Shown piece after piece: positions 1,882 to 61,927 of a stretch of 64,000 nt of DNA (within the stretch, counting starts at the first letter, position 1; every line of letters begins with the position of its first letter). The position numbers and the translations under genes are program-made. This stretch comes from a virus. Taxonomy: Duplodnaviria; Caudoviricetes. The notes beneath the pieces were generated by a model. The model ran no database searches, was not told where the DNA came from, and saw only the letters and a program-made list of their open reading frames with translations. Where the stretch lies: positions 1-64,000 of the IMG/VR virus record IMGVR_UViG_3300033066_002329. The stretch is one strand, 5' to 3'.

Positions 1882-4800
1882 TTTATTCCTGGTATATTCA
1901 TTATTTCGTTTCCTGCCTTACTAAATAATTCAGGAAAATTATTATATTTCAAAGTCTCCCAGTGAATAGGAGTTTTATTATTATTTAATGTAACTGCATG
2001 TGCTTGTCTACCATTAAAATTAATCATTCTACTTAATGAAGCTGCAGTTTTCCAATCTACCTTTAAAGCTTTTAATTGACCATTATCATTTATAATTCTA
2101 AAAATATTAGAATCAAGAACAACCATTCTTGCGGATTTGCCTGGCGTATTATCAACCTTTGTTCTACCTAATTCCATAAGAGAAATTATATGACAAGCAT
2201 ATAAATTTTGTAAACCATTATCTTCTTTCCCTTTAATTAAAACGATGCCTCCATAAGTCCACAAATTTGTATCATTTGATTCTTCAATCACTTCAGACTC
2301 TTTATATAATTTATCATAATCTCTATCAGTTAATCCAAAATCAATTAAAACTAATTCTTCGCCACCATCTCTCTTAACAACTCCATAAGATGAAATTTGC
2401 CCTAAATCTCCAGCTAATGCATCTGTTCCATCCATAAATTCTCTAAGAGAATCTACAAATGAATCATTATATAATCTATCAAGTAAAGGTTTTTGTAAAA
2501 AATATTTTGCCTTTCTGCCATTGTTTTCATCTTGATGATTTATTAAGTATTTTGCAACATCTTCTAAATTAAATGTAGTTAGCATTCTAAATTCAGACTT
2601 ATTAATAGGTCTTGCAAGCTCCATTTCTACCCACAAACCATCTGGATGTGAATCAAAAACTTGAGCAAGAATATTAGAGAAATATGTATGATTTCCTCTA
2701 TCTATTTCTGTATCATTTTGAGTTATACCCTTAGCGTTCTTAGCAAGTTTCAAGACCTTGTTGTCATCAATTTGATAAACTATTCTTGAAGACCCTGAAC
2801 CAAGTCTTTTTAAATTAGCATTGCAATAAGCAACTCTTTCTTTAAATGTCTTAAGAGACTTAAAATGTTCCATATCGAATGAAGAAGGATAATCTTCTTG
2901 AATATTTTCTTCTATTTGTTGACTTTCTATTGCACGTTCATAATAATCAATTAATCCATTCTCTGTTGCAAAATACATTATATTCTCAGGCGCAAAATTA
3001 ACCGTTTCTCTACCTTTAATTTCAATACCATCATAGCCAAGTTTAAGCATTTCTTTTGATATAGAAGTATTTTGTGCAAACTCTCTTGAGTTCTTATAGT
3101 TCTTAAAAATCAAATTTTGTTGAATCCATATTTCTGCAAGATTTGTATCTCTGAAAACCATAGGATTTTTTGGTTTGCCATTAACTACAAAATAAAGTTT
3201 TCCATATTGTTTTGCCATCTTCATATTACTAAGCGGCGCCATATACAAACCTTCTCCGAATCTTGCACCTGAACCATTTTCAGTATCTAATGTACCATCA
3301 GAAGATATTCCTCTAACCATTACATTTTTTCTCTTCCATTTTCTATAATCATCAAGACTATTAGAAAATGCTTCTTGGACCATTCTTCTTGCTTCGGCAA
3401 GTTGAGCATCTCTTGATAACACTTCTTTTTCTCTATTAATACTCTGTTGATTTTTCTTATCAAGATTATCCATTTCCTTATGCCAATAAGCAGAAACTCT
3501 TGCTACAAGCTTTTTCTTAACTGAATCTGGCATTATTCTCCAACCATCAAAATGTATCATAAAATCCTTAACGACTTCAGCAAGAGGCTTCATCGTATAA
3601 TGAAAATAATCAACTCCATCTGGAGAAGTTGCGAAGTCACCCTTTGTAAATCTTGTTTCATTTACAGCCTGAGTAAACCTTGCCCAAATTTCATGTTGAA
3701 GCTTCAAATATTCTTGATGTTTTTTCTTGTTTAATTCAGGGTTTGCATACACCGCCTGTCTTCCGTTGGCCATTGTATGTTTCTTATTATATGCTTTAGT
3801 TTTTCTTGCTTGAAATAATTTTGAATTACTTCTATAGTCATCATAAGCATGTTGTATCTCATGTTCTAATGTAGAATGAAATGCATACCACATTGTAAAA
3901 TATGCATCTCTATAATCATGCTCTTTTTCCTTAGAATAATCTTCAGTTAATTTATTATAAAAGTCACTATTTGGAAATAAAACAATTTCTCTTATTTTAT
4001 CATTATCATATTCAGGCTCTTTGATATGTGTATAATGTCCTAAAACTCCACTATCTCTTGTAGCTCTTGATACCTTAACATATATTTTTGTGTTAACTAA
4101 AAAATCTGAAAGTACTTGGAATTTTTTCGGATTTTCCTGGTACACTTCAAGGAGTCTTACAGGCATTACATAATCAATATATTGATTACTCTTTACCTGC
4201 CTTACAAATGCATCTAAGTTTACCTTTGCAAGATAAATAAGAGTTTCGTTAGCTAAATCTTTAATCTCTTTCACAGAATTATAATCTTCTGCAAGAACTT
4301 CTTCATTCACTGATTTAGATTCAAAGAATTCTCTAACAAGTTTTCTAACCTCATCCAAAGGTTCCATTTCATCTGACTTTGTGTGATTAATAACTTTTAC
4401 AACTCTATCACTAAAAGCAACATATACATTACCTTCAAGCCAAGCTGTTTGACCAATTACACCATTAACATTACAAAAATTGTAAAGAAATTCTGATGCC
4501 TCTTTTTTACCTCCAAGAATAGCCTCTAAATATTGATAAAGACTATCCATTGTCCATAGACCATACTCTTGAATTTCATTTTGAAATTGCTCAGCGCTAT
4601 CTTCATGTTTAGTTTTAATTAATGCATTATAAACATCTTGTGCAAGACTTTCTGAAATTTCTGAATCCCATTCATAAAATGAATCTAAACCTATCAATTT
4701 AACTTCATAGATATTAAAACCAGCATCTTTAAGTTTTCCTATAGATAATTCCTTGGCATATTTTAAGGCTGTACTTGGACTATCTGTAAAATAAAATCCC

Positions 4801-4898
4801 CAACCAAATTTAGAACGAGAATCTCCACTGCCAACTTTTGATAAATCAAAATGGTCAAATTCATAAGGAGAGCCGTGATAAAAATTTTCTAAAATCAT
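1869..4898 (-). CDS. polyvalent protein: ART-like + HExxH metallopeptidase + second ART-like + kinase-like domain
   Basis: FYHGS...GFYFT; LEHEIQHAYDD; VRG...GLYM; LGSGSSRIVY...VLKLAK...LIDFG. Confidence 0.6.
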   Translation of the reverse strand: MILENFYHGSPYEFDHFDLSKVGSGDSRSKFGWGFYFTDSPSTALKYAKELSIGKLKDAGFNIYEVKLIGLDSFYEWDSEISESLAQDVYNALIKTKHEDSAEQFQNEIQEYGLWTMDSLYQYLEAILGGKKEASEFLYNFCNVNGVIGQTAWLEGNVYVAFSDRVVKVINHTKSDEMEPLDEVRKLVREFFESKSVNEEVLAEDYNSVKEIKDLANETLIYLAKVNLDAFVRQVKSNQYIDYVMPVRLLEVYQENPKKFQVLSDFLVNTKIYVKVSRATRDSGVLGHYTHIKEPEYDNDKIREIVLFPNSDFYNKLTEDYSKEKEHDYRDAYFTMWYAFHSTLEHEIQHAYDDYRSNSKLFQARKTKAYNKKHTMANGRQAVYANPELNKKKHQEYLKLQHEIWARFTQAVNETRFTKGDFATSPDGVDYFHYTMKPLAEVVKDFMIHFDGWRIMPDSVKKKLVARVSAYWHKEMDNLDKKNQQSINREKEVLSRDAQLAEARRMVQEAFSNSLDDYRKWKRKNVMVRGISSDGTLDTENGSGARFGEGLYMAPLSNMKMAKQYGKLYFVVNGKPKNPMVFRDTNLAEIWIQQNLIFKNYKNSREFAQNTSISKEMLKLGYDGIEIKGRETVNFAPENIMYFATENGLIDYYERAIESQQIEENIQEDYPSSFDMEHFKSLKTFKERVAYCNANLKRLGSGSSRIVYQIDDNKVLKLAKNAKGITQNDTEIDRGNHTYFSNILAQVFDSHPDGLWVEMELARPINKSEFRMLTTFNLEDVAKYLINHQDENNGRKAKYFLQKPLLDRLYNDSFVDSLREFMDGTDALAGDLGQISSYGVVKRDGGEELVLIDFGLTDRDYDKLYKESEVIEESNDTNLWTYGGIVLIKGKEDNGLQNLYACHIISLMELGRTKVDNTPGKSARMVVLDSNIFRIINDNGQLKALKVDWKTAASLSRMINFNGRQAHAVTLNNNKTPIHWETLKYNNFPELFSKAGNEIMNIPGIKWTL

Positions 4899-4919
4899 AG
4901 TTAAAGATAAATAGTTCCA

Positions 4920-4953
4920 AAAAAGGAAAAAGGATAGCTAAAAAGCCATCCTT
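4920..4953 (-). terminator. rho-independent terminator after release factor gene
   Basis: AAGGATGGC-TTTTT-AGCTATCCTT hairpin followed by U-rich tract. Confidence 0.6.
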
Positions 4954-4966
4954 CTTCAATTTAAGA

Positions 4967-5647
4967 TTATTTTTTTAACAATTCAAGTTTACCCTTCATA
5001 AACTGTTTTAGACTTGTCTCCTTGCCTGTTTCATGGTCAATAACCCTATCATCTTTCTGACGGTAAGTTCGCTTCTTATCAGACCTCTCTCCACTTCCAA
5101 TTTGAGAATTTCTTTCCTCAGAGGATTCTTCTTCATATCCAGTCCTATAAAAATTATTTACCCTCTTAGTTATTTCCTCTAATGCTTCTTCCTTATTTTT
5201 ATGTTGGTGCCTTCCATCTCTAACAACCTTAATGCCAGTTGAAATGTGGGTAATTACAACACAAGAATCTGTAGTATTTTTATGTTGACCACCATTTCCT
5301 GTTCCACGTGTTGTTTCAATTTTAAGTTCTTCTGGCCTAATAACAATATTTTCATATTGTTTATTTTCCAATACAGCAACTGTTATTGTTGATGTATGAA
5401 CTCTTCCCTTACGTTCTGTTGGAGGTATTCTTTGCCATCTATGGCCACCAGCCTCATTTTTAAAATAATCTTCTACTCCATCTCCAGTTAGTCAGATAGA
5501 TACAAGACCTTCTTTTCAGTGTTCGTTAGACACAATGAAGTTATTATTTTTGGCTGCTTTGATATACATTGCAGCCATGTCCTTTACAAGGAGTTTTGAA
5601 TCTTCACCGCCTTCAGCGCTTCTGATTTCTAATACGATTTTTTCCAT
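4967..5647 (-). CDS. prfA: class I peptide chain release factor, RF1-like, lacking domain 1; two in-frame TGA codons (5516-5518, 5492-5494)
   Basis: Manual translation MEKIVLEIRSAEGGED...EH*KEGLVSI*LTGDG...GGHRWQRIPPTERKGRVHTST joins in frame to the GGQ-containing ORF 4967..5371; PxT motif. Confidence 0.9.
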
Positions 5648-5654
5648 AACTGTT

Positions 5655-6569
5655 TTATTTATTATTTGTAAATATACTACTTTTTTCTAATACTTCAAAA
5701 ATATTATCACAATATTTTATTCTAATAAGTTCAATTTGTTTATCTTTACAATATTCATTTTTAATTTTATCTCGCTTTTGGATATCTTTAAAAGCCTTTT
5801 CTCCTCCCCATTTTTCTATAACTTCAAAATGCTGTCTCCCATCAAATTCAATACAGATATTTTTATCTGGTAAATAAAAATCGAAAGAAAGTTTATTCAT
5901 GTTTTTACAATCTGAAAAGGAATATTGACTTTCATAAGTGATTTTATTTTTAATTAAAAAATTTCGTACTTCTCTTTCACCTTTTGATTCTTTACAAATT
6001 GGACAACCATTTCCCTGTAAGTGATATTTTGGTTTTTGAAAAAAACTACCATGTATTTTACATCTTATTTCTATTTTAGTATGTTGATTTACATACTGAG
6101 AACAGTATGTAAATCTATCTCCATGAATTTTTAAAGCTTTATCAATAAAAATATTATTGTTATGTAAATGAGAACTTGAACTTGCTAATCTTCCACAAGC
6201 AGGACATCCTTTTCCGCTTAAGTGGTCATGTGGACTTTGCAAAAAAGAGTCGTGTAATGGACATTTAATTATAACTTTAGATTCATTATTTATGTATTCT
6301 GCTTTAGAATAATCATATTTTTCACCATGAATTTCAACAACCTTTTCAATGAAATATTTTGTATTTAACTTTCCTGTTCCAGAACAAATTGAACAGCCTT
6401 TTGTATTAATATGGTCATGATAGCGCTGTAAGAATTCTCCATGCTCTGGACAAATAATAGTAATTTTTTGTAAAGAATTTATATATTTTACTTTCGAATA
6501 ATCATACTTATTTCCATGAACTTCTTTACATTTAAAAACTATTTCTGAAGTTGTTAATTTTTTTGCCAT
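5655..6569 (-). CDS. putative homing endonuclease (CPxHG Zn-ribbon repeats + PD-(D/E)XK domain)
   Basis: Repeated C..HG.F.Q....H....GC..C; FDFYLP...IEFDGRQHF. Confidence 0.8.
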   Translation of the reverse strand: MAKKLTTSEIVFKCKEVHGNKYDYSKVKYINSLQKITIICPEHGEFLQRYHDHINTKGCSICSGTGKLNTKYFIEKVVEIHGEKYDYSKAEYINNESKVIIKCPLHDSFLQSPHDHLSGKGCPACGRLASSSSHLHNNNIFIDKALKIHGDRFTYCSQYVNQHTKIEIRCKIHGSFFQKPKYHLQGNGCPICKESKGEREVRNFLIKNKITYESQYSFSDCKNMNKLSFDFYLPDKNICIEFDGRQHFEVIEKWGGEKAFKDIQKRDKIKNEYCKDKQIELIRIKYCDNIFEVLEKSSIFTNNK

Positions 6570-6660
6570 TTTTATTTATAAATATAACAAAAAAAACAAA
6601 AACGACCATTCACAGCCCTTATTTCAAATGTAAATTTATTAAAATAACATATTTATATCT

Positions 6661-7071
6661 ATGAATATACAACTTCGAAAATTAATTAGAGAAACAATTG
6701 AATATATTGGTCAAATTAATCAACCAGAGTATTATTTAGATGATTTTTACGCAATAGATTACAATAGTGATGTAGATGAGAGTTCAGCAATACAATTTAT
6801 TCAATCTATAATAAATCAAGTTAATAATTTCACATTTCCACTCATTGTTTATAGAGGAATTAACACTAAATCTCCAAACGAAAGAGGTTACGAAAACTCT
6901 TCATGGTCATTAGATAAAAAAGTAGCTCAAGGCTTTGGAGATAAATTATTAATTGGTATTATACCAAATAAAAACATTATAGATTTAGAACAGACTATAA
7001 GAACAAGAGTAATGAATCCAGGAGAAAATGAAATTTATGTGCCTAATTCTGAAGGCGTAATAATACAATAA
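6661..7071 (+). CDS. ADP-ribosyltransferase-like protein; N-terminal LRKLIRE motif
   Basis: VYRG...SSWSLDKKVAQGF...ENE resembles the R-S-E ART signature. Confidence 0.55.
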   Translation: MNIQLRKLIRETIEYIGQINQPEYYLDDFYAIDYNSDVDESSAIQFIQSIINQVNNFTFPLIVYRGINTKSPNERGYENSSWSLDKKVAQGFGDKLLIGIIPNKNIIDLEQTIRTRVMNPGENEIYVPNSEGVIIQ

Positions 7072-7167
7072 TTAATTATTCTGCGGCACGAAGTTCAATT
7101 ACAATTGTTTTTTTCATAGCTGTTTTATTTTTTATAAATATACAACTTTTTATTCATGAAAAACAAA

Positions 7168-7863
7168 TTATTTAAAAATTTTTTCTAAAATTTCTGTTTC
7201 CTTAACCACTCTATCCCAATGAACCTTTTTAAGTTTCTTTCCCCACGCAGTATTAAATTCGATATCTTCAATAAATTTTTTTTGAGCTGGAATAAAATCT
7301 TCAAAACTTTTTCCAAATTCTTGAGATAATCCAAATACGCTTTGATGAATCCAATTATACATCATTACTTGCACAATATCCGCATCTCTAATAATCTCTT
7401 GATAAATATTTAAATCTTTCTTATCAATTACATAAGGATATTGAGTAGCATCCAATATCTCAGAAATAAATTTAAAATCTGCATCGACTTTTTCTTCTTT
7501 CAAAAATGTTTCTACTCCCTTTTTCGCTTCTTTGATATTTTTATCATCAGTAGTCTTACCTGCAGAATGATTAAAGTCATGAAAAATAGCTGCAATAAGC
7601 ATTTCTTTCATCATCTTATCTTCTGTAGTTGTTTCTTCACTAACACCATCATATACAGCCTTTGTAACAGTTAAAAGATGATTAAGATTATGATATGGAG
7701 CGCTGTTTGATTTATTATTTTTTATAATAAATTTAAAAGCTTTCTTCAAATAATCAAATTTATTAATTATCTCAATAGTTGATAAATCTTGTTTAGATGT
7801 AAATTTATTTTCAACCAATCCAGCAAGAATTGCCATCTTATTTTTTTCGTTTTCCATATTCAT
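7168..7863 (-). CDS. HD-domain phosphohydrolase
   Basis: PYHNLNH...AAIFHDFNH...DAD. Confidence 0.8.
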   Translation of the reverse strand: MNMENEKNKMAILAGLVENKFTSKQDLSTIEIINKFDYLKKAFKFIIKNNKSNSAPYHNLNHLLTVTKAVYDGVSEETTTEDKMMKEMLIAAIFHDFNHSAGKTTDDKNIKEAKKGVETFLKEEKVDADFKFISEILDATQYPYVIDKKDLNIYQEIIRDADIVQVMMYNWIHQSVFGLSQEFGKSFEDFIPAQKKFIEDIEFNTAWGKKLKKVHWDRVVKETEILEKIFK

Positions 7864-7892
7864 TTATACGATTTTAAATGTGAATAGTTACA
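7864..7892 (-). promoter_or_regulatory. ECF-sigma-type promoter TGTAAC-N16-CGTATAA (one of 11 copies)
   Basis: Exact 16-nt spacing shared with 10 other sites; abuts ATG of HD gene. Confidence 0.65.
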
Positions 7893-7895
7893 AAT

Positions 7896-7926
7896 AAAAA
7901 ACCCCCAGGTGTTACCTGAGGGCTTT
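7896..7926 (-). terminator. rho-independent terminator downstream of large ncRNA
   Basis: GCCCTCAGGT-AAC-ACCTGGGGGT + T run. Confidence 0.75.
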
Positions 7927-7944
7927 CAATTTTAAAAACTTGAG

Positions 7945-8842
7945 ATTACGGTTTTTAGTCCCGAACTTTGGTGGGATTATGTATTCCCCATTAGTCTTTA
8001 TCCAGGTATCTTGCGATACCTATTCGGTAGTCCTGATGAGCTAACGGCCATCACTCTTATCAATTGCTTCTATTCTGCAGATACTTCTCCTATACGATGA
8101 TGCCGCACCATATAAAACTTTCACTACAATCCGCCAAACTTTGTGAGTCTAAACGTTCCTAATTCAATCTTTCGAATGTTAGGATATGAAGAACCTTTCG
8201 AAGACAATCGTGTACGGGGTTTTTACTTTGTGTTATTTTAAACATAAATAGTAGCCTTCCAAGGGCAACTTTCCATCTTTCGATAAAAAGGGTTTCATAA
8301 TGCTCGCTAAGAGACGTACCCGTACAGGGTTGGCTCGGTTCCTTTTGAGAACGGAATACCACTACGCCTCTCTGTAGATGCTGACCGCATCCCACTAATT
8401 AATTTTATACTCTCCATTTGCATCATCCCGTCAAAGATAGCCTTAAATGGTGACGTAAGTATAAAACCTTTTTGACTTATAGCACTTGCCTTGCCTGACT
8501 TGCACAATAAATCTCGACTTTCTTATTTAGATATCCCTATCCTCAACACCACGTCATTATACATGATGTATTTCTCTCATCCATTAAGACATTGAGAAAT
8601 ATACTTATCTTTTGCTTGGTTGTCCTATCCAATGTATTACTACACTGACAAGGCGGAAGTTTGCAAACTCCCCTTTATTCACCATTACTGGGTTTATCTT
8701 TCCCCAGATAATTCCTCTTTCGAGAAACTATCTGTTGAGCCACCTTACGATGACTCAGGACATTGTATAACCTTTCGACTATACCAGGCCCCATGCGACC
8801 TGAATTTTTTTCAATATTTTAAAGAACGTTTCGTTTAATTTT
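7945..8842 (-). ncRNA. large (~0.9 kb) structured non-coding RNA, GOLLD/ROOL-like candidate
   Basis: GC-richer, no credible ORF, many GNRA-capped hairpins, own promoter and terminator, next to tRNA-like genes. Confidence 0.65.
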
Positions 8843-8848
8843 CTTTTG

Positions 8849-8880
8849 CAAATATATGATGACTTTCATCCAAATGCAAA
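8849..8880 (-). promoter_or_regulatory. Bacteroidota primary-sigma promoter TTTG-N20-TATATTTG
   Basis: Matches the -33 TTTG / -7 TAnnTTTG consensus. Confidence 0.75.
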
Positions 8881-8948
8881 TTTATTTTTGTTTTTTTTCT
8901 ATTTTTTTTATAACTAACTGTAAATCAAATAGAAAAAATAATAACGTC

Positions 8949-9030
8949 TGGTAATGGAGGACAACTCATTTCACTTATCCACATTTTTGCGAACATGGTG
9001 CTACTTTACTCTGTCCTTTATTCACTACCA
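8949..9030 (-). ncRNA. small structured RNA candidate
   Basis: Terminal stem TGGTAGTG/CATTACCA and inner stem AGGACA/TGTCCT. Confidence 0.4.
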
Positions 9031-9054
9031 ATATTTTAAAGAACTTATTAAAAA

Positions 9055-9187
9055 AAAGCCACAAGTAAAGCGTAGTGCAAGCGTCTCATGGACTCCTACT
9101 TTTTTCGATACTGATTTTGCATGTCCATCCTTCCTATTTTGTCTGCGCTATTTAAGGACCACCAAAGGCGATTGAACACGTAGCTTT
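9055..9187 (-). ncRNA. rod-like structured RNA candidate
   Basis: AAAGCTACG/TGTGGCTTT terminal stem; ATGGAC/GTCCAT inner stem. Confidence 0.35.
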
Positions 9188-9195
9188 TTAAATTT

Positions 9196-9216
9196 GCCTC
9201 CCAGGAGGGGTTCGAA
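9196..9216 (-). pseudogene. isolated 3-prime tRNA fragment (T-loop + acceptor strand)
   Basis: TTCGAAC-CCCTC-CTGGGAG-G at edge of endonuclease gene. Confidence 0.45.
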
Positions 9217-9247
9217 AATTTATTTTATATTTATATATAAATTATTT

Positions 9248-51786: not shown

Positions 51787-53238
51787 TTATAATTCTACAC
51801 TATTTTTAATTGTATTAGTAAGAATGTTAATATCTTGCTCTGCAAGTTTCATAAGGTCAAAAATCTTTTCAGAAAATCCAACTAAAAAAATCACCTTATT
51901 TCCAACAAATTGAATTGTTGGATTACCTGCTAAATCAAAATTATATAAAAATGGATTTGCCCCTGTTTTCTTTTTATAATCATTAAAGCAATATTGACTT
52001 GAATTCATTTGACCCCAAGCTTCTCCATCTGATAATATAATCAAACGGTCATATTTATTTTTTTCTTTATCCATTAATTCAAAAAACTTACTATATTTTG
52101 TTCCTCCAAGGTCAATTCCATTAAACTTTTCACTGATAGTAAAAATACTATCTTTTAAATTAAAGTTTACATAATTAGCAGTATCTCCAAATACAATTAC
52201 ATCAGCATTATTTGATTTTGCTAATACAGCAGCAAATAAACCTCCAATTTTAGTTGGTTGACCACGCATAGAACCTGAACGGTCATATATTACACAAGTT
52301 TTTCCTGGTAATGCTGGAACATTAGAACAAGATATTTCAATAGCATCTTCTAATGCTGAGATAACTTGTCTCGAATTGCTTCCTCCTACTTTTTGCAATT
52401 CCTCAATTGCAGTTACAAATTGAAAAGGTAATATTAAAGACTTGGAAATTAAATTTTTATCTCTAAGCAAATTACATGCAGCATCTATAGACTCAGGAGA
52501 TTGAATCATTATATTTCTCAAATTTCTTACAAGAGCTAAATAACCAATCTTCTTAGTTTCAATAAGTTCTTTCCAAACTTGAGCCTTTTTTTCATTTTTA
52601 TCATTACCTGAATTAGACTGTCCTGCCTCAGAAAGTTTTGCCTCCCATGTATCTGTATTTTTTAAAGTACCATTAATAAGTTCAGCAAGAGCTTTCTTGT
52701 TTTTATTTGTTGCTTTAGGATGTACTAAATTAACAATATCAACAAGAGAAACTTCATTTCCTTCTCCTTTATATTTTGCCAATTGATATCCATCAAATTT
52801 ATCAAATGCCTTCGAAAATCCTTTTTTCAGAGAATTTGGTAAAGCCTTATTTTTATTTTTAATAAAATAATAAGATATAATTTCACTCATATCATCTGGT
52901 CTATTAATAATATCTTCAAAGAATTTTTTACTCCATTCTTTACCTGACAAGTATTTCGCAACTTCAACTGCAAGTACATGAGTAATAGAACGCATACCAA
53001 ATGTAGTTCTTGCATATATAGCAGCTTTTGCTGCAAATTTTGGGTCTACTTTTGTTAGTAATTCAGGAATCCTTTTTAAGGTATCTGTAGACTTTTTATA
53101 AAATTGGTCTTGTACAAATGAAGTTAAAAGAATTGACACTAATTCTACTTCTGCTGTTTTTTCATATGCTTGACCACCTGCATAATTAACAGCTTCAACT
53201 CTCTGTGGAGTTATCTTTTTTGTGTTAAATTTTCCCAT
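51787..53238 (-). CDS. Ro60/Rsr-like TROVE-vWA RNA-binding protein
   Basis: NYAGGQAY; YQLAKYK; YLALVRNLRN; YDRSGSM; LSDGE. Confidence 0.88.
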   Translation of the reverse strand: MGKFNTKKITPQRVEAVNYAGGQAYEKTAEVELVSILLTSFVQDQFYKKSTDTLKRIPELLTKVDPKFAAKAAIYARTTFGMRSITHVLAVEVAKYLSGKEWSKKFFEDIINRPDDMSEIISYYFIKNKNKALPNSLKKGFSKAFDKFDGYQLAKYKGEGNEVSLVDIVNLVHPKATNKNKKALAELINGTLKNTDTWEAKLSEAGQSNSGNDKNEKKAQVWKELIETKKIGYLALVRNLRNIMIQSPESIDAACNLLRDKNLISKSLILPFQFVTAIEELQKVGGSNSRQVISALEDAIEISCSNVPALPGKTCVIYDRSGSMRGQPTKIGGLFAAVLAKSNNADVIVFGDTANYVNFNLKDSIFTISEKFNGIDLGGTKYSKFFELMDKEKNKYDRLIILSDGEAWGQMNSSQYCFNDYKKKTGANPFLYNFDLAGNPTIQFVGNKVIFLVGFSEKIFDLMKLAEQDINILTNTIKNSVEL

Positions 53239-53640: not shown

Positions 53641-53904
53641 ATGGAAAACAATAAAGAAGAAACAAAAGACAAAGCAATCAATGAAGAAATAAAAGATACA
53701 GAAATCTTTTCATTTAGTTGTCTCGTTAATATTATTTTAGATTATTATAGTGAAACTTCTTCTGAAGAAGATTCGTCTGAAGCTTGGAAAAAAGGAACAG
53801 AACACGAAGAAAAAGGTGGAGTATCAGTTCCTAATGATGTAGATGATTTAGTAAAGAAAGCATTTAAATCTCAATTAAAAAAATTTATAAATAAAAATGT
53901 TTAG
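53641..53904 (+). CDS. acidic hypothetical protein
   Basis: Likely start ATG 53641. Confidence 0.55.
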   Translation: MENNKEETKDKAINEEIKDTEIFSFSCLVNIILDYYSETSSEEDSSEAWKKGTEHEEKGGVSVPNDVDDLVKKAFKSQLKKFINKNV

Positions 53905-54712
53905 TGATAACAATTTAATATTATTTTTACTTTGTATTATACCAGTAGTATTTTATTCACTTTTTATTTTTGCTAATTCTCCTTCTTTTTCAATAAGATT
54001 AAAGGCTTCTTTCACTTATTTGTATACAGGTTTATTATCAGTTACTTTGTTACAATTTATTCATTTTATATTTCCTCATTTACATGATGTATTTTTACAA
54101 ATTAATGTAGAAAAATTTACAATACAAAATGAGAATTTTAATTTTGTACAACCTACACTTGGCTCAATCATTCTATTTGCATTTATTCAAGTAGCATTAT
54201 TTGAAGAACTATCAAAATGGGTAGCTTTTAAATGCGTAAGCTATATGCGTGGCAGAAGAAGAAAAAACTTAGACCATCCTTATGCTATAATGTTTTATTC
54301 CTCATTAGTAGCAGCAGCTTTTTCTATAGTTGAAAATATTCAATATGCTCAACGAGCTATGTCTGGTGAATTTGGAATTGTAGAACCTTCAGATATTTTA
54401 ACCATAAGAGCTGTTACATCAGTAATTGTTCATATGGCCTGTGGTTTATTTATGGGTTATTATATGGGTCTGTCCAAAGGTTGCAACAAGCCAAAGGTAA
54501 TTTTATATAATACAATAGGTATTATATTAGCAACTTTTACGCATGGAATCTATGATTTTAATTTAATGAGAACAAATACTGCAAGTGATTTTTTTCATTG
54601 CTTCGGAACTGAAATACACATTCCAAGTTTAGTGATAATAAGTTTCAGCTTATTATCTTGCTATTTAATGTCTTGCTACTTAAAAACTAAAGAGACTACT
54701 AATCTTCAGTAA
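53897..54712 (+). CDS. PrsW-family intramembrane glutamic/metallo-protease
   Basis: FEELSKW; FSIVEN; HMACG; HGIYD. Confidence 0.8.
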   Translation: MFSDNNLILFLLCIIPVVFYSLFIFANSPSFSIRLKASFTYLYTGLLSVTLLQFIHFIFPHLHDVFLQINVEKFTIQNENFNFVQPTLGSIILFAFIQVALFEELSKWVAFKCVSYMRGRRRKNLDHPYAIMFYSSLVAAAFSIVENIQYAQRAMSGEFGIVEPSDILTIRAVTSVIVHMACGLFMGYYMGLSKGCNKPKVILYNTIGIILATFTHGIYDFNLMRTNTASDFFHCFGTEIHIPSLVIISFSLLSCYLMSCYLKTKETTNLQ

Positions 54713-55247
54713 CAACTGTACCATTTTTAATATAATAACTCATTTCATCAAAGATACAAGTTAATATATCCATCAATGTAAATTTTACTTTTAGCTTTAA
54801 ATTTACATCATTATGTTTAAGCTCAATATTATCATCTATAATCAAAGATAAACTTCCAAGCTTATCAGAACCTATCTCACCTTCTAAAGCTTCTATAAAC
54901 TCAATTTCTGGAAGAATATAGACAAATTCTTCATCTGATAAAAACTCATCTGATTCTATAACCATTTTTTTATACAATCTTACTGCTTTATATTTTTTAT
55001 CTAATTTAGTTGCAGTCGCAAATGCTCTAACAACTTCATATTCTTCTGAAAAATATCCCTTAATAAATTCTCTAAGGCCATAAAGTCCATGAACAAGTTC
55101 TTCAATTTTTACATCTTCATCAATTGTAACATAGAAACCCAGAAGTTGCATTAAATATTCATTTATATTTTCTACTCCTTCTGTTGTTACTAATCCATCT
55201 TCTATGTAAAAATTACCATTCTTTTTTATGCTTAATAAATTCTTCAT
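54699..55247 (-). CDS. hypothetical protein
   Basis: ORF. Confidence 0.6.
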   Translation of the reverse strand: MKNLLSIKKNGNFYIEDGLVTTEGVENINEYLMQLLGFYVTIDEDVKIEELVHGLYGLREFIKGYFSEEYEVVRAFATATKLDKKYKAVRLYKKMVIESDEFLSDEEFVYILPEIEFIEALEGEIGSDKLGSLSLIIDDNIELKHNDVNLKLKVKFTLMDILTCIFDEMSYYIKNGTVVTED

Positions 55248-56467
55248 TATTTTACAGTTACAGCATTTAATTTTTCATCAAACTTCAGTTTTAATACAGT
55301 TCCTGGCTTAACTTTTTTACCTAATAAAAATTTAGCAATTGGAGTTTCTACATATGATGTAATTGCTCTCTTAAGAGGTCTTGCTCCATAGTCTCTATCA
55401 TATCCATTATCCATAAGAAATTTCTTAACAGACATATCAATATTTACTTTGTAACCTTTATTCTCAATTCTACTAATCATATGACCCAATTCAATATCAA
55501 CAATTTTTAAAATATTTTCTTCTGAAAGAGGCTGAAAAACTATCTTTTCATCAATTCTATTTAATAACTCAGGTCTAAATTCTTTTTTAAGTTCAGACAT
55601 GACTTTTTCTGTAACTGAATCATCAATAGAATTGCCTACTGCAAAACCAAGTTTTTTATCGGTTAATATTTTTTCTGTTCCAATGTTAGAAGTCATGATG
55701 ATAATTGTATTCTTAAAATTTATTTCTTTACCATGAGAATCAGAAAGTTTACCCTCATCAAGAACTTGTAATAAAATATTAAAAATATCCTTATGAGCTT
55801 TTTCAATTTCATCAAATAAAACAATTGAATATGGTTTGTTTTTTACTTTTTCTGTTAGTAAACCCTTTTCTTCATGGCCAACATATCCAGGAGGAGCACC
55901 TATTAATTTAGATACATTAAATTTCTCCATATATTCAGACATATCAAATCGTATAAATGATTCATCAGTATCAAACAAATACCTTGATAATATCTTTGCT
56001 AAGTGAGTATTGTGAGACAATATACCATTTGTATAATATCTCCTATTAGAATTTTCATCCAATTCAAGGTCATACATTTCTTCGAAAAACCCAGTAGCAA
56101 CTATTGATTTTATTTCGTCAATCTCAAGTTCTCCATTCCCGCTATCTACATATATTAAATCACCCACTGACAAGTTTGCAACAAAAATTTCATCCATTAA
56201 ATAGTCGAAAACTATATGGTTATCTGCGCACCTTATTTCTTTTCCAGATTTAGTTTTTAGTTCATACACTTCATATGGTATGGTTGTATGTAAATTAACA
56301 ATATCAATAAACCCTTCGTCAGTCAACACTTCATAATCTAATACTTTTTTTGTTTCTACTATTTTTTTATATCCATCAAACTCTTTTTTGTCTAATATAA
56401 AAAACTGTGGTCCATTTTCTCTTTTTCCTTCTATCATAATTTTTAAGTTAAATATTAAAATACTCAA
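55247..56467 (-). CDS. clpC: split-intein C-part fused to C-terminal half of ClpC-like ATPase (AAA2)
   Basis: ...ILSHN then THLAK; DMSEYMEK; GAPPGYVG; LFDEIEKAH; RPELLNRID. Confidence 0.9.
   Translation of the reverse strand: MSILIFNLKIMIEGKRENGPQFFILDKKEFDGYKKIVETKKVLDYEVLTDEGFIDIVNLHTTIPYEVYELKTKSGKEIRCADNHIVFDYLMDEIFVANLSVGDLIYVDSGNGELEIDEIKSIVATGFFEEMYDLELDENSNRRYYTNGILSHNTHLAKILSRYLFDTDESFIRFDMSEYMEKFNVSKLIGAPPGYVGHEEKGLLTEKVKNKPYSIVLFDEIEKAHKDIFNILLQVLDEGKLSDSHGKEINFKNTIIIMTSNIGTEKILTDKKLGFAVGNSIDDSVTEKVMSELKKEFRPELLNRIDEKIVFQPLSEENILKIVDIELGHMISRIENKGYKVNIDMSVKKFLMDNGYDRDYGARPLKRAITSYVETPIAKFLLGKKVKPGTVLKLKFDEKLNAVTVK
56009..56467 (-). mobile_element. C-intein (about 143-153 aa) of split intein
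   Basis: Block B IRCADNH; block F MYDLEL; block G SHN followed by Thr. Confidence 0.85.
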
Positions 56468-56875
56468 TTATTTTTTTATCATATTACTTTTAATGCTTTT
56501 ATGAATATTATATTTAATACTCTCGCCATATTCTAAAATTTTTTTAATAATATAACTATTTAACTCACCATTTAAAGTTGCCATTACTTCTTCATCAATA
56601 ATATCTTCACTTTCACATATTCTTAAAGTTAAATGAAATATTTCATGTGATAACGTACTTATATCTATAATATAATTGTCTCTTTTTATAAATAGAATAA
56701 TTTTATTTGTATTATAAAAACAAATTACACATCCATTTATTTTTTCTATTTTAGATTTTACAATACTGTGTTTTTCATATAATTTTGTTACACTTTTAAA
56801 GTCTGACGAAATTAATACATGTATTAATTTCGTCACATTTTTAATTTTTATAATAAACTCTAAATCTTTCACCAT
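56468..56875 (-). CDS. hypothetical protein with HEIFH motif, inside fractured clpC locus
   Basis: LSHEIFH. Confidence 0.5.
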   Translation of the reverse strand: MVKDLEFIIKIKNVTKLIHVLISSDFKSVTKLYEKHSIVKSKIEKINGCVICFYNTNKIILFIKRDNYIIDISTLSHEIFHLTLRICESEDIIDEEVMATLNGELNSYIIKKILEYGESIKYNIHKSIKSNMIKK

Positions 56876-56880
56876 GCCTA

Positions 56881-57456
56881 TTATATATTATATATGAACA
56901 ATGCAGAATACTCTTTTTTTGAATTAAATTCTTTAATCTGTTTCATATACATACCATATGATAAATTTTTTTGCATATTGTTATCTAAAACAACTTTATA
57001 AGTTTCACCAATAATTCCCATTATTTTTTGCGTTTTTAGAGAATTTAATTCTTTTTTTTCTTCTTCATTAAACTCTCTAAAATATTCACTATCTCTAATT
57101 ATACTTAAGATTTCACTTGAAACAAAGATAGTGTTTATTTTTTTACCACTTCTATACATATGAACATTTGATAGTTGTGAAACACTTTTAATAAAAGTTG
57201 CGTTCCATTCCTTTTGGTTTCCATGAAAATTTGATTTATTTTTAAAACCATTATAATCCCATGATGCAGTACAAGGCAAAACAAACTCCTTAATATCTTC
57301 CCCCAATTCTGCAACTTCATCCTCAGCTAATATGTCATTATCATATTTTTTAAATATCTTTGTATATACTTTGTTTTTTTTAATATCATAATTTAGAGTT
57401 GATATTGTTTTCATTGTTTTCATTGTTTTCATTGTTTTTAAATTATTAATAAACAA
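56881..57456 (-). CDS. hypothetical protein inside fractured clpC locus
   Basis: ORF. Confidence 0.55.
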   Translation of the reverse strand: MFINNLKTMKTMKTMKTISTLNYDIKKNKVYTKIFKKYDNDILAEDEVAELGEDIKEFVLPCTASWDYNGFKNKSNFHGNQKEWNATFIKSVSQLSNVHMYRSGKKINTIFVSSEILSIIRDSEYFREFNEEEKKELNSLKTQKIMGIIGETYKVVLDNNMQKNLSYGMYMKQIKEFNSKKEYSALFIYNI

Positions 57457-57466
57457 ATATACATTT

Positions 57467-58999
57467 TTATTTAATTATTTCCAAAAATTTTAGGCATTTA
57501 TCTACAACTTCTTGTTTATTGTTTTTATATTCATTTTCACTCACATGTAAAACTTCATATCCACAACTTTTTATAGATATATCTCGCCTTTCTTCTCTTT
57601 TTTTATTTTCTGGATTCAATCTGTGATAATAAGTACCATCAAATTCGATTATTTTTTTATCTTCTAACACGAAAAAATCTGGTAATACAACTTTATCATC
57701 CAGACTCAATCTATATTCATTGTTTTTATCCTCAATCTCTTTTTCTTTTATCTCTTGGTTTAATGTAGCAAAAAACACCTGCCTCTTAAGTTTATAGCAC
57801 AAAGGCATCTCTTTGTAAATCTCCCAAAATAATTTCTGTGATATTTTTGAGTAATTATTTCTCTTGTAATTTTTTAGCCACTTTTCCTGTCTATCTCTCC
57901 ATCTTTTTTCTCCATCTTCTTTTCCATGATTTTCAATACACTTTTCTAAAGAAAATGTAGACTGTCTTTCTCTTAATTTTTCTTTTGCATCTTCTTCTGA
58001 GTGACCGTTGTTTATCCAATACCCAATTTGTGTTTGTGTCACAGCTGAATATGCGCCAGGATTTTCTTCTCTTTTTTTTGTAAACTTAATTGAGTTACTT
58101 TTTTGTAACTCTCTCACCTTGTATTTTGACTCGACTTCTGAAAACCCTTTCTTTGTCCAAAATTCTTCTTGAGTAGGAGATAAACATATTTCATCAATTT
58201 CCAAATCAGAATATCCATATTTTTTAAGATTTTCTTTTGTTGGTATGAATGGATTTATTCTTTTTTTAGAATTTTCAGATTGTATTTTAAATATTTCTTT
58301 TTTTGCGTCTTCCTCAGAATATCCTTTTTTCATCCAACTTTCAATAGATAAGGTGTTTTTTTCTTTAATTTTCTTTGCTATATTTCCAATCATCTTAATA
58401 GCAACATCATTCGGCAAAAAAGATAAATATTTATCATTTTTTTTCATGTTATGCGTTTTACAGTCATTAGACGAACATCCAATTATTTTATAATAAAATT
58501 TATCAGATATATTATTTATATTAACTCTTTTTAAAATTAAATCGCTATTACACTCATTGCAAATAGGTTTATTTTTTGAATAAAATATTCCAGATATAAA
58601 TCTAAATTCTTTTTCTGAACCATTTACAATTAACACATTCTTGTCCTTATTATGTATATTCCTTGTATTAGACTGCTTTATTGCTCTTTCTGATTTATCT
58701 TTCTGTATTATGTTATTTGATTCATCATTGCTCCAACCACGTTCAATCCAGAACTCTTTTTTTGTTACATTTTTATACTTAAAACTAAATCCTCTATGTA
58801 AATTTCTTGTTAGTCTTGTATATTGAATAACTTCATCTGTTATGGAAAAAAAACTATAGGCCTGTTTTATTTTATCTTCTATAATTTTACTATCAAATTT
58901 AAGAGAAGAATAATTTATTTTTAAATATTCAATAAACGAATCAACTGTTGGAAACAATATTACAAACTCTTTTCTTTTTCTTTCATGCACTATTAACAT
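57467..58999 (-). CDS. free-standing endonuclease (W..KGYSEE.A repeats + PD-(D/E)XK) inside fractured clpC locus
   Basis: Repeats; LPDFFV...IIEFDGTYYH. Confidence 0.75.
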   Translation of the reverse strand: MLIVHERKRKEFVILFPTVDSFIEYLKINYSSLKFDSKIIEDKIKQAYSFFSITDEVIQYTRLTRNLHRGFSFKYKNVTKKEFWIERGWSNDESNNIIQKDKSERAIKQSNTRNIHNKDKNVLIVNGSEKEFRFISGIFYSKNKPICNECNSDLILKRVNINNISDKFYYKIIGCSSNDCKTHNMKKNDKYLSFLPNDVAIKMIGNIAKKIKEKNTLSIESWMKKGYSEEDAKKEIFKIQSENSKKRINPFIPTKENLKKYGYSDLEIDEICLSPTQEEFWTKKGFSEVESKYKVRELQKSNSIKFTKKREENPGAYSAVTQTQIGYWINNGHSEEDAKEKLRERQSTFSLEKCIENHGKEDGEKRWRDRQEKWLKNYKRNNYSKISQKLFWEIYKEMPLCYKLKRQVFFATLNQEIKEKEIEDKNNEYRLSLDDKVVLPDFFVLEDKKIIEFDGTYYHRLNPENKKREERRDISIKSCGYEVLHVSENEYKNNKQEVVDKCLKFLEIIK

Positions 59000-59092
59000 A
59001 TTTTTTTAATTTTATTATAAATAGTAATTAAAAAATACTTAAACCAACAAATAGAAACTAAAAAGTGGGTTGAAGTGGGTTAGGAAAACGAT

Positions 59093-60439
59093 TTATAATC
59101 TTTTTTTCAACTCATCTATACTAATAGACTCAATCACTCCAGTAGACTTTCGCCTTGTAACTATTTGACTATCAGAACAAAAACATTTACCTACACCAGT
59201 TGAACCCAAAAATAAAAATGAAGCAATAGGCTTATTAGGGTCTTGGACTCCTATTCTTGACCTTTGAATTGCATCCGTAATTTTAGTTATTGCTTCATCT
59301 TGACCTATAATTCTTTCTTTTAAATAAGAATCTAATTGAAGTAGTTTTTCATTTTCAGAATCTGTCAATTTATTAAGAGGAATTCCCGTTTGTTTAGAAA
59401 TTATTTTTGCTACATCTTCAACAGTTACTTGAATTTTAATTTCTTTAGATTTCTTATGCCAGCTAATATTCTCTTCTTCAATTTTGATATTAATATCTCT
59501 AATTGAGTCTCTGAATTTTGCCGCAGATTCATAATTTTGTTGACGTGCTGCTTCTTTCTTTTTTAATTCAGCTTCTTTTAATTCTAATTCTAATTTTTTG
59601 ATTTCTTCTGAAACAAATACATTTGATAATTTAACCCTTGAACCTACTTCATCCATTAAATCAATTGCTTTATCTGGAAAGTTTCTATAAGTAATATATC
59701 TATCTGCTAATTCAACACATTTTTCAAGTATTTCATCTGAAAATACTACGCCATGATATTCTTCATATTTATCACTAATTTGTTTTAATATACTTACGGT
59801 TTCTTCTTTGGTTGGTATATTAACATATACTTTTTGAAATCGTCTTTCAAGAGCGCTATCTGTCTCTATTACTTTCTTATATTCATCAACAGTAGTTGCT
59901 CCAATACATCTCATATCTCCTCTTGCAAGAGCAGGTTTAATAATATTTGCAGCATCCATAGAACCAGAAGCTCCACCAGCACCAATTACATTATGTAATT
60001 CATCAATAAAAAGAATAATATCTGGATTATTTTGAACTTCTTTAATAATCTCTTCCATTCTTTGTTCGAATTCTCCACGATATTTAGTTCCTGATACAAC
60101 AGAAGTAATATTTAACTCAATAATTCTTTTATTGAATAACCATCTATCAATTTGCTTATTGTGTATTCTAATTGCTAAACCTTCAACTATAGCTGTTTTA
60201 CCAACGCCTGGTTCTCCAATTAAAATAGGATTGTTTTTTTTCTTCTTATTTAAGATTTGAATAGTTTGGTCTATTTCATCTTCTCTGCCTATTACAGGGC
60301 TTAAAGTTCCCTTAGCTGCTAACACTGTTAAGTCCTTGCCAAAATTGTCCAAAAAAGGAGTGCTTGTCTTAGTCTTTTTGATTTTATCAATACTTGACCC
60401 TTCATCTTCTTCTGGGCCGAATGCTCTATTTTTGTCCAT
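59093..60439 (-). CDS. clpC: N-terminal half of ClpC-like ATPase (AAA1 + coiled coil) fused to 30-aa N-intein
   Basis: GEPGVGKT; FIDELH; GATT; ends GSTGVGK then CFCSDSQIV...KKRL*. Confidence 0.9.
   Translation of the reverse strand: MDKNRAFGPEEDEGSSIDKIKKTKTSTPFLDNFGKDLTVLAAKGTLSPVIGREDEIDQTIQILNKKKKNNPILIGEPGVGKTAIVEGLAIRIHNKQIDRWLFNKRIIELNITSVVSGTKYRGEFEQRMEEIIKEVQNNPDIILFIDELHNVIGAGGASGSMDAANIIKPALARGDMRCIGATTVDEYKKVIETDSALERRFQKVYVNIPTKEETVSILKQISDKYEEYHGVVFSDEILEKCVELADRYITYRNFPDKAIDLMDEVGSRVKLSNVFVSEEIKKLELELKEAELKKKEAARQQNYESAAKFRDSIRDINIKIEEENISWHKKSKEIKIQVTVEDVAKIISKQTGIPLNKLTDSENEKLLQLDSYLKERIIGQDEAITKITDAIQRSRIGVQDPNKPIASFLFLGSTGVGKCFCSDSQIVTRRKSTGVIESISIDELKKRL
59096..59185 (-). 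mobile_element. N-intein (30 aa) of atypically split intein
   Basis: Begins Cys-Phe immediately after Walker A GK; block-A-like CFCSDSQIV. Confidence 0.8.
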
Positions 60440-61021: not shown

Positions 61022-61927
61022 TTATAAACCATATTTTACATTCAATCTTTTTAACTCAGCAAATAACTGCATTGTTATTTCAAAAGTATCCGAACTTGAA
61101 GCATCTAAATTAGATAAAAATAAAGTCCATTCAGCTATAAATTCACTATAAGAAGAAATGTTTTTATCTAAATTTTCAATGTATTCGAATACTGTTTTAG
61201 TTAAATAGTCGTCAAATATAATTTTTTTACCTTTTAATGCAAATTCTTTTTCAGAATAAAATTTTAAAGTTTCTGAAGAATCTAAAATTTCATAATATAA
61301 TTTAACAAGTTTACCCATTCTGTTTTTTGTAGTCTCAATGGTTCTTGTATTTCTCTTTTCATCAAATACCATATGAACATGAGCATCTGAATCAAATTTT
61401 AAAAAACTTGCTCCTTCAAAGTCACCATCTTTAGTAAGTTGCCCAATTAAAATAACAACACCACCAGTTCTATCTTTCCATTCTGTTAAAACATCATAAA
61501 TATGTCTCATAGCAGCTTCTCTTGTCATTCCTTCTTTTACGAAGTCAACAGCAATTCTTTGAATAGAATCTAAGATTAAAATTTTAACATCTCCACGCTC
61601 TTCAATCATTTTCATAAATAAATTAAAATGAGGAAAGTCTTTGCTATCAGCAATAAAAGCATTTTTATGAGTAATTTCTAAACGTAAAGTTTGTTTTTTT
61701 ACCAAAGAACTTAACATCTCTCTTGAGTAAAAAGCTGAAACATGGTCTGAAATAAGAGATTGTATTTTTTTACAAAGAGTTGTTTTACCAGCCCCTGAAG
61801 TACCAGTTAAAAATATTAAATTAGCCCATTCAATACCACCTTGTGTAGAAAATAAGTTGTCTAATTTTTCATCTCCAGTTCTTACTGCTGCTACTGAGGA
61901 TAATTCAACGTCTTGATAATTTTTCAT
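61022..61927 (-). CDS. RadA/Sms-like P-loop ATPase
   Basis: TGDEKLDNLF..GGI; GTSGAGKTT; ILDSIQ; KNRMG. Confidence 0.75.
   Translation of the reverse strand: MKNYQDVELSSVAAVRTGDEKLDNLFSTQGGIEWANLIFLTGTSGAGKTTLCKKIQSLISDHVSAFYSREMLSSLVKKQTLRLEITHKNAFIADSKDFPHFNLFMKMIEERGDVKILILDSIQRIAVDFVKEGMTREAAMRHIYDVLTEWKDRTGGVVILIGQLTKDGDFEGASFLKFDSDAHVHMVFDEKRNTRTIETTKNRMGKLVKLYYEILDSSETLKFYSEKEFALKGKKIIFDDYLTKTVFEYIENLDKNISSYSEFIAEWTLFLSNLDASSSDTFEITMQLFAELKRLNVKYGL

Follow-up and report, generated by a model that had tools for sequence, protein, structure and literature searches.

A phage gene for a ClpC-like unfoldase broken within its second P-loop by a predicted split intein, with a candidate homing endonuclease and two further genes between the halves

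The DNA studied here is the first 64 kb (positions 1 to 64,000; hereafter, the window) of the IMG/VR virus record IMGVR_UViG_3300033066_002329, in which a gene for a ClpC-like ATPase (clpC) is broken in two within the Walker A motif (P-loop) of its second AAA+ ring (D2). We consider it probable, at roughly 85%, that the gene was fractured by a mobile cassette consisting of a split class 1 intein, an endonuclease gene and two passenger open reading frames (ORFs), and that trans-splicing, as predicted from the sequence, restores a ClpC of 671 residues. The whole record totals 88.9 kb at a CheckV completeness of ~29%, which points to a jumbo phage; its G+C content is ~27%, and 18 tRNA genes were found. 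The parts of the locus, including the N-terminal and C-terminal intein parts (IntN and IntC), are as follows.

59093..60439, minus strand: N-half ORF, 448 aa, ending in ...FLGSTGVGK followed by CFCSDSQIVTRRKSTGVIESISIDELKKRL and a stop
59186..60439, minus strand: N-extein, ClpC-like residues 1-418 (Pfam AAA, AAA_lid_9 and UVR; PHROG 4871 positions 164-510)
59096..59185, minus strand: predicted IntN, 30 residues (CFCSDSQIVTRRKSTGVIESISIDELKKRL), read from the sequence, with Cys1 and block A only
59000..59092, minus strand: spacer of 93 nt from the N-half stop to the endonuclease start, with an extra in-frame stop two codons ahead of the ATG
57467..58999, minus strand: candidate homing endonuclease, 510 aa (Pfam DUF559)
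56881..57456, minus strand: ORF of 191 aa, without a match in Pfam, PHROG or NCBIfam
56468..56875, minus strand: ORF of 135 aa (phrog_1365; HEIFH motif)
56009..56437, minus strand: predicted IntC, 143 residues counted from the ATG at 56437, with blocks B (CADNH), F (MYDLEL) and G (RYYTNGILSHN)
55247..56008, minus strand: C-extein, 253 residues from Thr+1 (THLAK...) (Pfam AAA_2, 1.3e-59; ClpB_D2-small, 3.3e-22)

An earlier note on this DNA had claimed that ClpC is fractured at Walker A, its N-half ending in GSTGVGK plus a 30-aa IntN and a stop, and the sequence reads exactly so at the coordinates it gave, with the Cys1 codon at 59183-59185 and the stop codon at 59093-59095. Its second claim, of a C-half about 2.6 kb and three genes further on that supplies blocks B, F and G, these ending in SHN|THLAK, also agrees with the sequence: beyond three same-strand ORFs (510, 191 and 135 aa), the C-half ORF (55247..56467, minus strand) contains ...RYYTNGILSHN|THLAK and continues as THLAKILS... 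into AAA_2, the terminal Asn codon being 56009-56011 and the Thr+1 codon 56006-56008. The C-half likely starts at the ATG at 56437, as in the public gene call (396 aa); an alternative upstream TTG would give an IntC of 153 aa. The insertion thus bounded is 3,177 nt long (59185 down to 56009) and lies between the codons for Lys418 and Thr. In PHROG 4871 ('ATP-dependent protease'), the N-half covers positions 164-510 and the C-half positions 510-756, exactly abutting, which puts the break precisely at the Lys-Thr boundary of the Walker A in D2.

Unbroken alleles of the same gene exist. The 90%-identity cluster of the N-half holds two unbroken proteins of 671 residues, both from Logan assemblies, which are identical to the predicted ligation product at 617 and 612 of its 671 positions (91-92%), have the same length, and share its junction, GSTGVGKTHLAKILS. 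The predicted ligation would restore GSTGVGKTHLAK, an exact match to these relatives and to the intein-free viral relatives alike, so the earlier claim that joining the halves would rebuild GSTGVGKT is borne out as far as a predicted junction can be. Among the related viral contigs that we compared with the window locus (numbered with the prefix L), L003, L007, L012, and L020 carry an intein-free gene (57-77% identity) in which the matches to the N- and C-exteins adjoin with a gap of 0 and the junction reads G(S/P)TG(V/T)GK|T; to the unbroken genes of L003 and L007, the N-extein is 72-77% identical. Both exteins in the window keep every AAA+ motif, without a frameshift or stop. The existence of intein-free alleles at 91-92% identity indicates that the insertion is recent and polymorphic in the phage lineage, with its exteins intact.

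A break of this kind in a metagenome assembly could be an artefact of assembly or sequencing, if the contig is chimeric or if the true intein is one continuous unit with its endonuclease domain inside, and the N-half and the 510-aa ORF do share a reading frame. At least two stops lie between them, however (the open frame around the 510-aa ORF is 512 aa long), and the 191-aa ORF is in a different frame from both. A second Joint Genome Institute (JGI) contig of 23.8 kb also carries the N-half (447 of 448 residues identical) with the same IntN tail and stop, and the gene calls for the N-half, for IntC with the C-half, and for the endonuclease each occur on two contigs. The same D2 break is found on eight further viral contigs, homologous split loci come from many unrelated samples, and 130 of 150 representatives of the intein family begin with IntC. 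We therefore find an artefact barely credible. The stops and frames led us to reject a large unsplit intein with the endonuclease domain inside it, and a group I intron was rejected as well, as there was no sign of one and protein-level intein blocks were present instead.

The intein nature of the inserted segments is supported by sequence and by predicted structure. When searched with phmmer against PDB sequences, IntC gave as its best match CatC (6DSL_B, E 7.7e-5), i.e., the C-terminal part of Cat (6DSL), a consensus of atypically split inteins, followed by gp41-1 (8.5e-5) and then by the RadA, TvoVMA, and DnaX inteins; the NCBIfam model TIGR01443 (intein_Cterm) scored 18.3 bits against a cutoff of 15.6. 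An AF2 model of IntC, built on 12 homologues, has a predicted local distance difference test score (pLDDT) of 72, with the first ~23 residues disordered. All 29 PDB matches of this model at E ≤ 1e-3 in Foldseek were inteins, including Cat (6DSL) and VidaL (6VGV), and the weaker matches listed included an intein-like domain from bacteria and a HINT (hedgehog/intein) domain of the hedgehog type; the modelled IntC accordingly has the HINT fold. The alignment of IntC with CatC begins at CatC residue 16, so that the break coincides in position with that of the AceL/GOS-TerL/Cat group. The likeness to AceL-TerL and GOS-TerL suggested in the earlier note therefore holds, in that CatC is the best PDB match and about a third of the nearest family members sit in large terminases.

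The residues on which splicing would depend are all in place. In all 12 Clp-borne copies (the window and 11 related loci), Cys1, the block B His, the block F Asp, the penultimate His, the terminal Asn, and Thr+1 are conserved, and 33 columns are invariant among the 12 IntC sequences. Block B (CADNH), with the essential His, is invariant among the aligned Clp copies, and IntC is under purifying selection among relatives (ratio of nonsynonymous to synonymous substitution rates, dN/dS, 0.08-0.41). IntN-like tails of 30-37 residues follow G-K|C in the 11 related Clp loci, and an IntN-like segment also occurs inside contiguous members of the intein family. IntC has an N-terminal extension of ~25 residues, which is kept in the D2-site relatives. 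Taken as sequence features, these support a class 1 intein that is atypically split after block A, into an IntN of 30 aa and an IntC of 143 aa.

The same observations bear on the possibility that the intein has decayed and no longer splices, the ClpC pieces being either inactive remnants or separate proteins, i.e., a D1-only unfoldase (D1 being the first AAA+ ring) and an orphan D2 fragment. Such a history would fit the two unrelated ORFs that have accumulated between the halves and the close relatives that cope with an unbroken gene, and decay does happen in the family, since the endonuclease of L008 is in four small ORFs. Against it stand the retention of every catalytic residue, invariant across the 12 relatives, the purifying selection on IntC, exteins that are complete in their AAA+ motifs and share 91-92% identity with intact proteins, and the persistence of the arrangement in at least nine diverged phages. 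We judge decay to be highly unlikely.

The protein that is interrupted can be described from its two halves, between them holding two AAA+ modules (AAA and AAA_lid_9 in the N-half, AAA_2 and ClpB_D2-small in the C-half), and is by sequence a ClpC-like two-ring Hsp100 ATPase. The N-extein comprises D1, an AAA+ module whose Walker A (GEPGVGKT) is intact, with a Walker B and an AAA lid, then a short UVR-type M-motif (Pfam UVR, residues 286-316), then the start of D2 through the Walker A Lys (GSTGVGK); in NCBIfam, the N-half gave partial ClpB, ClpA, and ClpK matches. The C-extein completes the AAA+ module of D2, with its Walker B (DEIEKAH) and GARPLKR, has an LGF loop and a D2-small domain as well, and matches the D2 of PDB ClpB and ClpC proteins at 1e-79 to 1e-67. 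Its KKLGFAV segment aligns, in the ClpB-ClpA chimera 5OFO, with the IGL loop derived from ClpA, in the region of ClpP docking. A total of 671 aa is too short to accommodate the ClpB M-domain, and the M-domain is a short one, not the long ClpB coiled coil. No Pfam Clp_N match was found in the N-half; the unbroken 671-aa relatives equal the predicted N-domain-less product in length, and relatives at a greater distance, L002 among them, do have Clp_N. The most fitting description of the protein is ClpC-like without an N-domain.

If the cassette works as we propose, two polypeptides would be made, ClpC(1-418)-IntN (30 aa) and IntC (143 aa)-ClpC(419-671), and the short IntN would dock on IntC to complete the HINT fold. 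Cys1 would undergo an N-S acyl shift, the thioester would be handed to the side chain of Thr+1, and the terminal Asn would cyclise with the help of the penultimate His and release the intein, after which an O-N shift would leave a normal peptide bond in a 671-residue ClpC with an intact GSTGVGKT P-loop. Because the P-loop Lys and Thr are on separate chains, D2 should bind ATP properly only once the halves are ligated. In co-infected cells, the endonuclease would presumably cut clpC alleles that lack the intein, at the P-loop codons or close to them, and recombinational repair would then copy in the whole 3,177-nt cassette.

The separation of Lys and Thr also bears on whether the intein halves could act solely as non-covalent association domains, with no peptide bond formed. 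Split-intein halves by nature bind tightly, and a precedent is reported in a fragmented phage enzyme, a split NrdA, that is assembled non-covalently by domains derived from a mobile element (PMC3045599). Yet a P-loop cut between Lys and Thr with ~170 intein residues attached is unlikely to bind ATP, the conserved Cys1, terminal His-Asn and Thr+1 would be needless for mere association, and the family includes proven splicers, i.e., AceL/GOS-TerL and Cat, according to the review PMC11766414. We rate association without ligation as still less probable than decay.

Between the halves, the 510-aa ORF is by sequence a candidate homing endonuclease of the DUF559/Vsr-like (EDxHD) type. Its C-terminal DUF559 domain scored 33 bits against a Pfam cutoff of 20.6, and eight full-length homologues, which also lie between intein halves (L002, L004, L005, L006, L009, L010, L013, and L060), conserve the nuclease motif IIEFDGTYYH...RRD with its E, D, H, and D. 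In the N-terminal two thirds, the motif W-x-x-(K/R)-G-x-S-x-E-E-A is repeated four to five times, and there is a CxxC...CxxxC insert; we presume that the repeats and the Cys insert bind DNA. The protein had no phmmer match among PDB sequences and no Pfam NUMOD match. The earlier note had pointed to a free-standing nuclease between the halves, which the 510-aa DUF559 ORF confirms for one of the three intervening genes only.

For the other two ORFs, a pattern search of viral contigs found no relatives, and the related fractured loci lack both and hold other small ORFs, or none, in their place. The 191-aa ORF gave only low-score leads in Atlas. Its start is ambiguous because of a tandem MKTMKTMKT (three ATG-AAA-ACT units), and the Atlas entry begins at residue 9. 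The 135-aa ORF belongs to phrog_1365 (E 7e-7), a widespread phage family without an assigned function; its Atlas clusters at 0.96 are hypothetical viral proteins throughout, and Peptidase_M78 is a lead only, at 0.89. The HEIFH (HExxH) motif read from its sequence suggests that it may be a small, minimal ImmA/IrrE-like metallopeptidase. The terminator scan also reported, in the 5' part of this ORF (56804-56835), a perfect palindrome with a 14-bp stem (TGACGAAATTAATACATGTATTAATTTCGTCA), which could serve the insertion as a site of recombination or of protein binding.

Several results weigh against a functional split-intein cassette and have to be set beside the evidence above. Comparison with profile hidden Markov models, suggested in the earlier note as a check on the intein, succeeded in part: TIGR01443 was above its cutoff, whereas Pfam Intein_splicing scored 29.8, below its gathering score of 35.8, and NCBIfam intein_Nterm fell just under its cutoff. 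The 30-residue IntN alone had no phmmer match in PDB sequences. Block B has Ala in place of the Thr usual in inteins, an Ala found in at least 90% of the family. The signals expected of separate genes were weak, in that promoter-like sites occurred at the level of shuffled sequence (46 versus 45.7), none of five terminator-like hairpins was convincingly placed at a gene end, and no convincing ribosome-binding site was seen. The two extra ORFs between the halves could be a sign of a decaying locus. Finally, no clpP (PF00574) was found in the 88.9-kb, ~29%-complete record, so that a role of the product as partner of a protease is no more than possible.

Arrangements of this kind have precedents. 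Dassa et al. (2009) described fractured genes in which a split intein is combined with a free-standing homing endonuclease, including a terminase 'fractured at an unusual point', whose C part of 122 residues lacks motif N1 only (PMC2677866). The window clpC is broken at the same unusual point as that terminase, and it shares with the fractured genes a phage origin and the same order on one strand, i.e., the N-terminal host part with IntN, the endonuclease gene, and IntC with the C-terminal host part. A Vsr-like endonuclease was present in half of those loci and is present here. The eight hosts described in 2009 were enzymes of DNA synthesis or repair, whereas the host in the window is a protein unfoldase, and one gene with a 27-51-nt spacer separated the halves there, in contrast to three genes over 2.6 kb with a 93-nt spacer here. 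In our view, the three genes and the longer spacer vary the arrangement and leave its principle unchanged.

In family by sequence and in the split point after block A, the window intein resembles AceL-TerL, GOS-TerL and Cat, and it shares with them class 1 residues and a phage or metagenome context; the terminases that make up about a third of the nearest database relatives of IntC are of the T4-type. In that group, IntN measures 25-37 aa and IntC 104-122 aa (the review PMC11766414; PMC2677866). AceL-TerL and GOS-TerL are in terminases, in contrast to the Clp/Hsp100 unfoldase here, and the review gives Cys/Cys for AceL and Ser/Cys for GOS, versus Cys1/Thr+1 in the window. The ~25-residue extension of IntC is likewise unlike AceL, GOS and Cat.

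The EDxHD/Vsr-like endonuclease family was described from fractured genes (PMC2677866), and its prototype, I-Bth0305I (Vsr-like, DUF559), represents one case in which homing was shown experimentally (PMC3239194). Like it, the 510-aa ORF combines a C-terminal DUF559 domain bearing E, D, H, and D with N-terminal repeats of short helix-type motifs. Unlike it, the ORF repeats W-x-x-K-G-x-S-x-E-E-A four to five times, has a Cys4-like insert, and is about twice as long (the nuclease-domain construct of I-Bth0305I ends at residue 266). The insertion point is familiar as well: insertion in the P-loop between the Walker A Lys and Thr/Ser has been called 'classic', e.g., in mycobacteriophage TerL1-a (PMC5050341), where the site is the same (GxxxxGK|T) and the P-loop Thr serves as the +1 nucleophile, as it would in the window ClpC. 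Inteins of the TerL1-a type are contiguous, whereas the window intein is split, and its host is an AAA+ protein with two rings, of which it interrupts the second.

Eleven further Clp-borne copies of the intein were found in ten viral contigs. Eight occupy the D2 site (L002, L004, L005, L006, L008, L009, L010, and L011); an endonuclease sequence lies between the halves in seven of them and is missing from L011. In one of the seven (L008:6820-8029), it has decayed into four small ORFs within an otherwise intact fractured ClpC. Three copies are in the Walker A of D1 (GEPGVGK|T; L002, L013, and L060). L002 (IMGVR_UViG_3300042888_002852, 3999-9227) has both sites occupied, and its ClpC is encoded in three ORFs: the D1 split intein is without an endonuclease (stop near 4844, restart at 4905), and the D2 split intein, 64% identical to the D1 intein, has one. 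A ClpC in three pieces would need two related but orthogonal trans-splicing reactions, and the presence of two related intein pairs raises the question of how cross-reaction is avoided. P-loops of D1 also carry other inteins. In L006 (4074-5165), a 364-residue in-frame insertion at the D1 Walker A with a LAGLIDADG_3 match is a contiguous intein of a different family, beside the split intein at D2. In L022 (6200-6983), the D1 P-loop is interrupted two residues further upstream by a different intein (GDPG|C ... SHN|TGKT), which has an IntN of ~18 residues and a 91-aa ORF between its halves and is possibly a split intein with an ultra-short IntN.

To place these copies in their wider family, we built a profile from the 12 IntC sequences and ran it against 1.84 billion representative proteins; 1,467 clusters matched at E ≤ 1e-3, of which 103 reached E ≤ 1e-30. 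IntC stands at the very N-terminus in 130 of the 150 best clusters, i.e., they are split at the same early point, and ~17 of the best 150 are contiguous members with G-K|C ahead of a 30-residue IntN-like segment. The earlier note had described short-N split inteins as rare; they are few among those characterised and common in sequence data, as these counts illustrate. The Thr+1 that it counted among the notable features is the norm of the family (Thr 104, Ser 43, Cys 1, among 149 of the best 150 clusters). Hosts among the best 98 clusters included Terminase_6N (n = 33), DnaB_C (n = 14), Clp AAA_2 (n = 10), ABC_tran (n = 3), and a clamp loader (n = 1).

A quick, weakly supported tree groups most Clp inteins in one clade in which D1 and D2 copies are interleaved; many forks are unresolved, L060 (D1) is sister to a D2 group (Shimodaira-Hasegawa-like approximate likelihood-ratio test, SH-aLRT, 97%), and the nearest neighbour of the window intein is in an ABC ATPase. 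The D1 and D2 Walker A sites have a common DNA core, GGNGTWGGTAAA|AC. Whether a single lineage of split intein plus EDxHD endonuclease moved between the D1 and D2 sites of clpC in a clade of jumbo phages is, on these sequence comparisons, a proposal to which we give even odds. If true, the window element would be a snapshot of a P-loop-hopping family that is also found in terminases, DnaB helicases, and ABC ATPases, and the family would be a natural source of many orthogonal split inteins with a short IntN and Thr or Ser at +1.

No Clp-borne intein of this kind was found among 50,697 GenBank phage records. A tblastn search of the C-half against GenBank phages matched 489 records in the extein alone and none with IntC fused to ClpC, indicating that no deposited phage carries the element; megablast of the 5.2-kb region against GenBank phages returned a single, chance-like match of 153 nt. 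No second copy of the intein or of the endonuclease is present in the 88.9-kb record.

Upstream of clpC (61022-61927) is a KaiC/RecA/DnaB_C-like P-loop ATPase of 301 aa, whose Walker A (GTSGAGKT) is unbroken. Abutting the clpC stop is a 182-aa ORF (54699-55247) without a family match, a counterpart of which lies directly downstream of clpC in the intein-free L003, L007, L012, and L020 (27-56% identity); its product may be a partner or adaptor of ClpC. Shortly downstream are genes for a membrane protein (53897-54712) and a TROVE/Ro60-like RNA-binding protein (51787-53238; phrog_850).

Much of this architecture is already known, i.e., the fractured-gene arrangement (2009), the split type with a short IntN, and the insertion point between P-loop Lys and Thr. 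New here are the Clp host and the presence of three genes rather than one between the halves; new in the relatives beyond the window, as read from their sequences, are the colonisation of both rings and a ClpC in three parts. The literature that we searched contained no report of an intein in ClpA/B/C-type ATPases, and only chloroplast ClpP appeared in it, so that the earlier note was apparently right to single out the Clp host.

Semi-synthesis and labelling of proteins call for split inteins with a first part of a length that can be synthesised; few of these have been characterised, and this locus adds an example with Cys1 and Thr+1 in a new host. It belongs to a large family, with hundreds of clusters mostly split at one early point, that offers a pool of candidate orthogonal pairs. 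For phage biology, the finding means that an ATPase of protein quality control, and not genes of DNA metabolism alone, is open to colonisation by a selfish intein-endonuclease cassette, and that the site taken can be the most conserved one in either ATPase ring. The cassette is polymorphic, with intein-free alleles at 91-92% protein identity, a situation suited to the study of homing.

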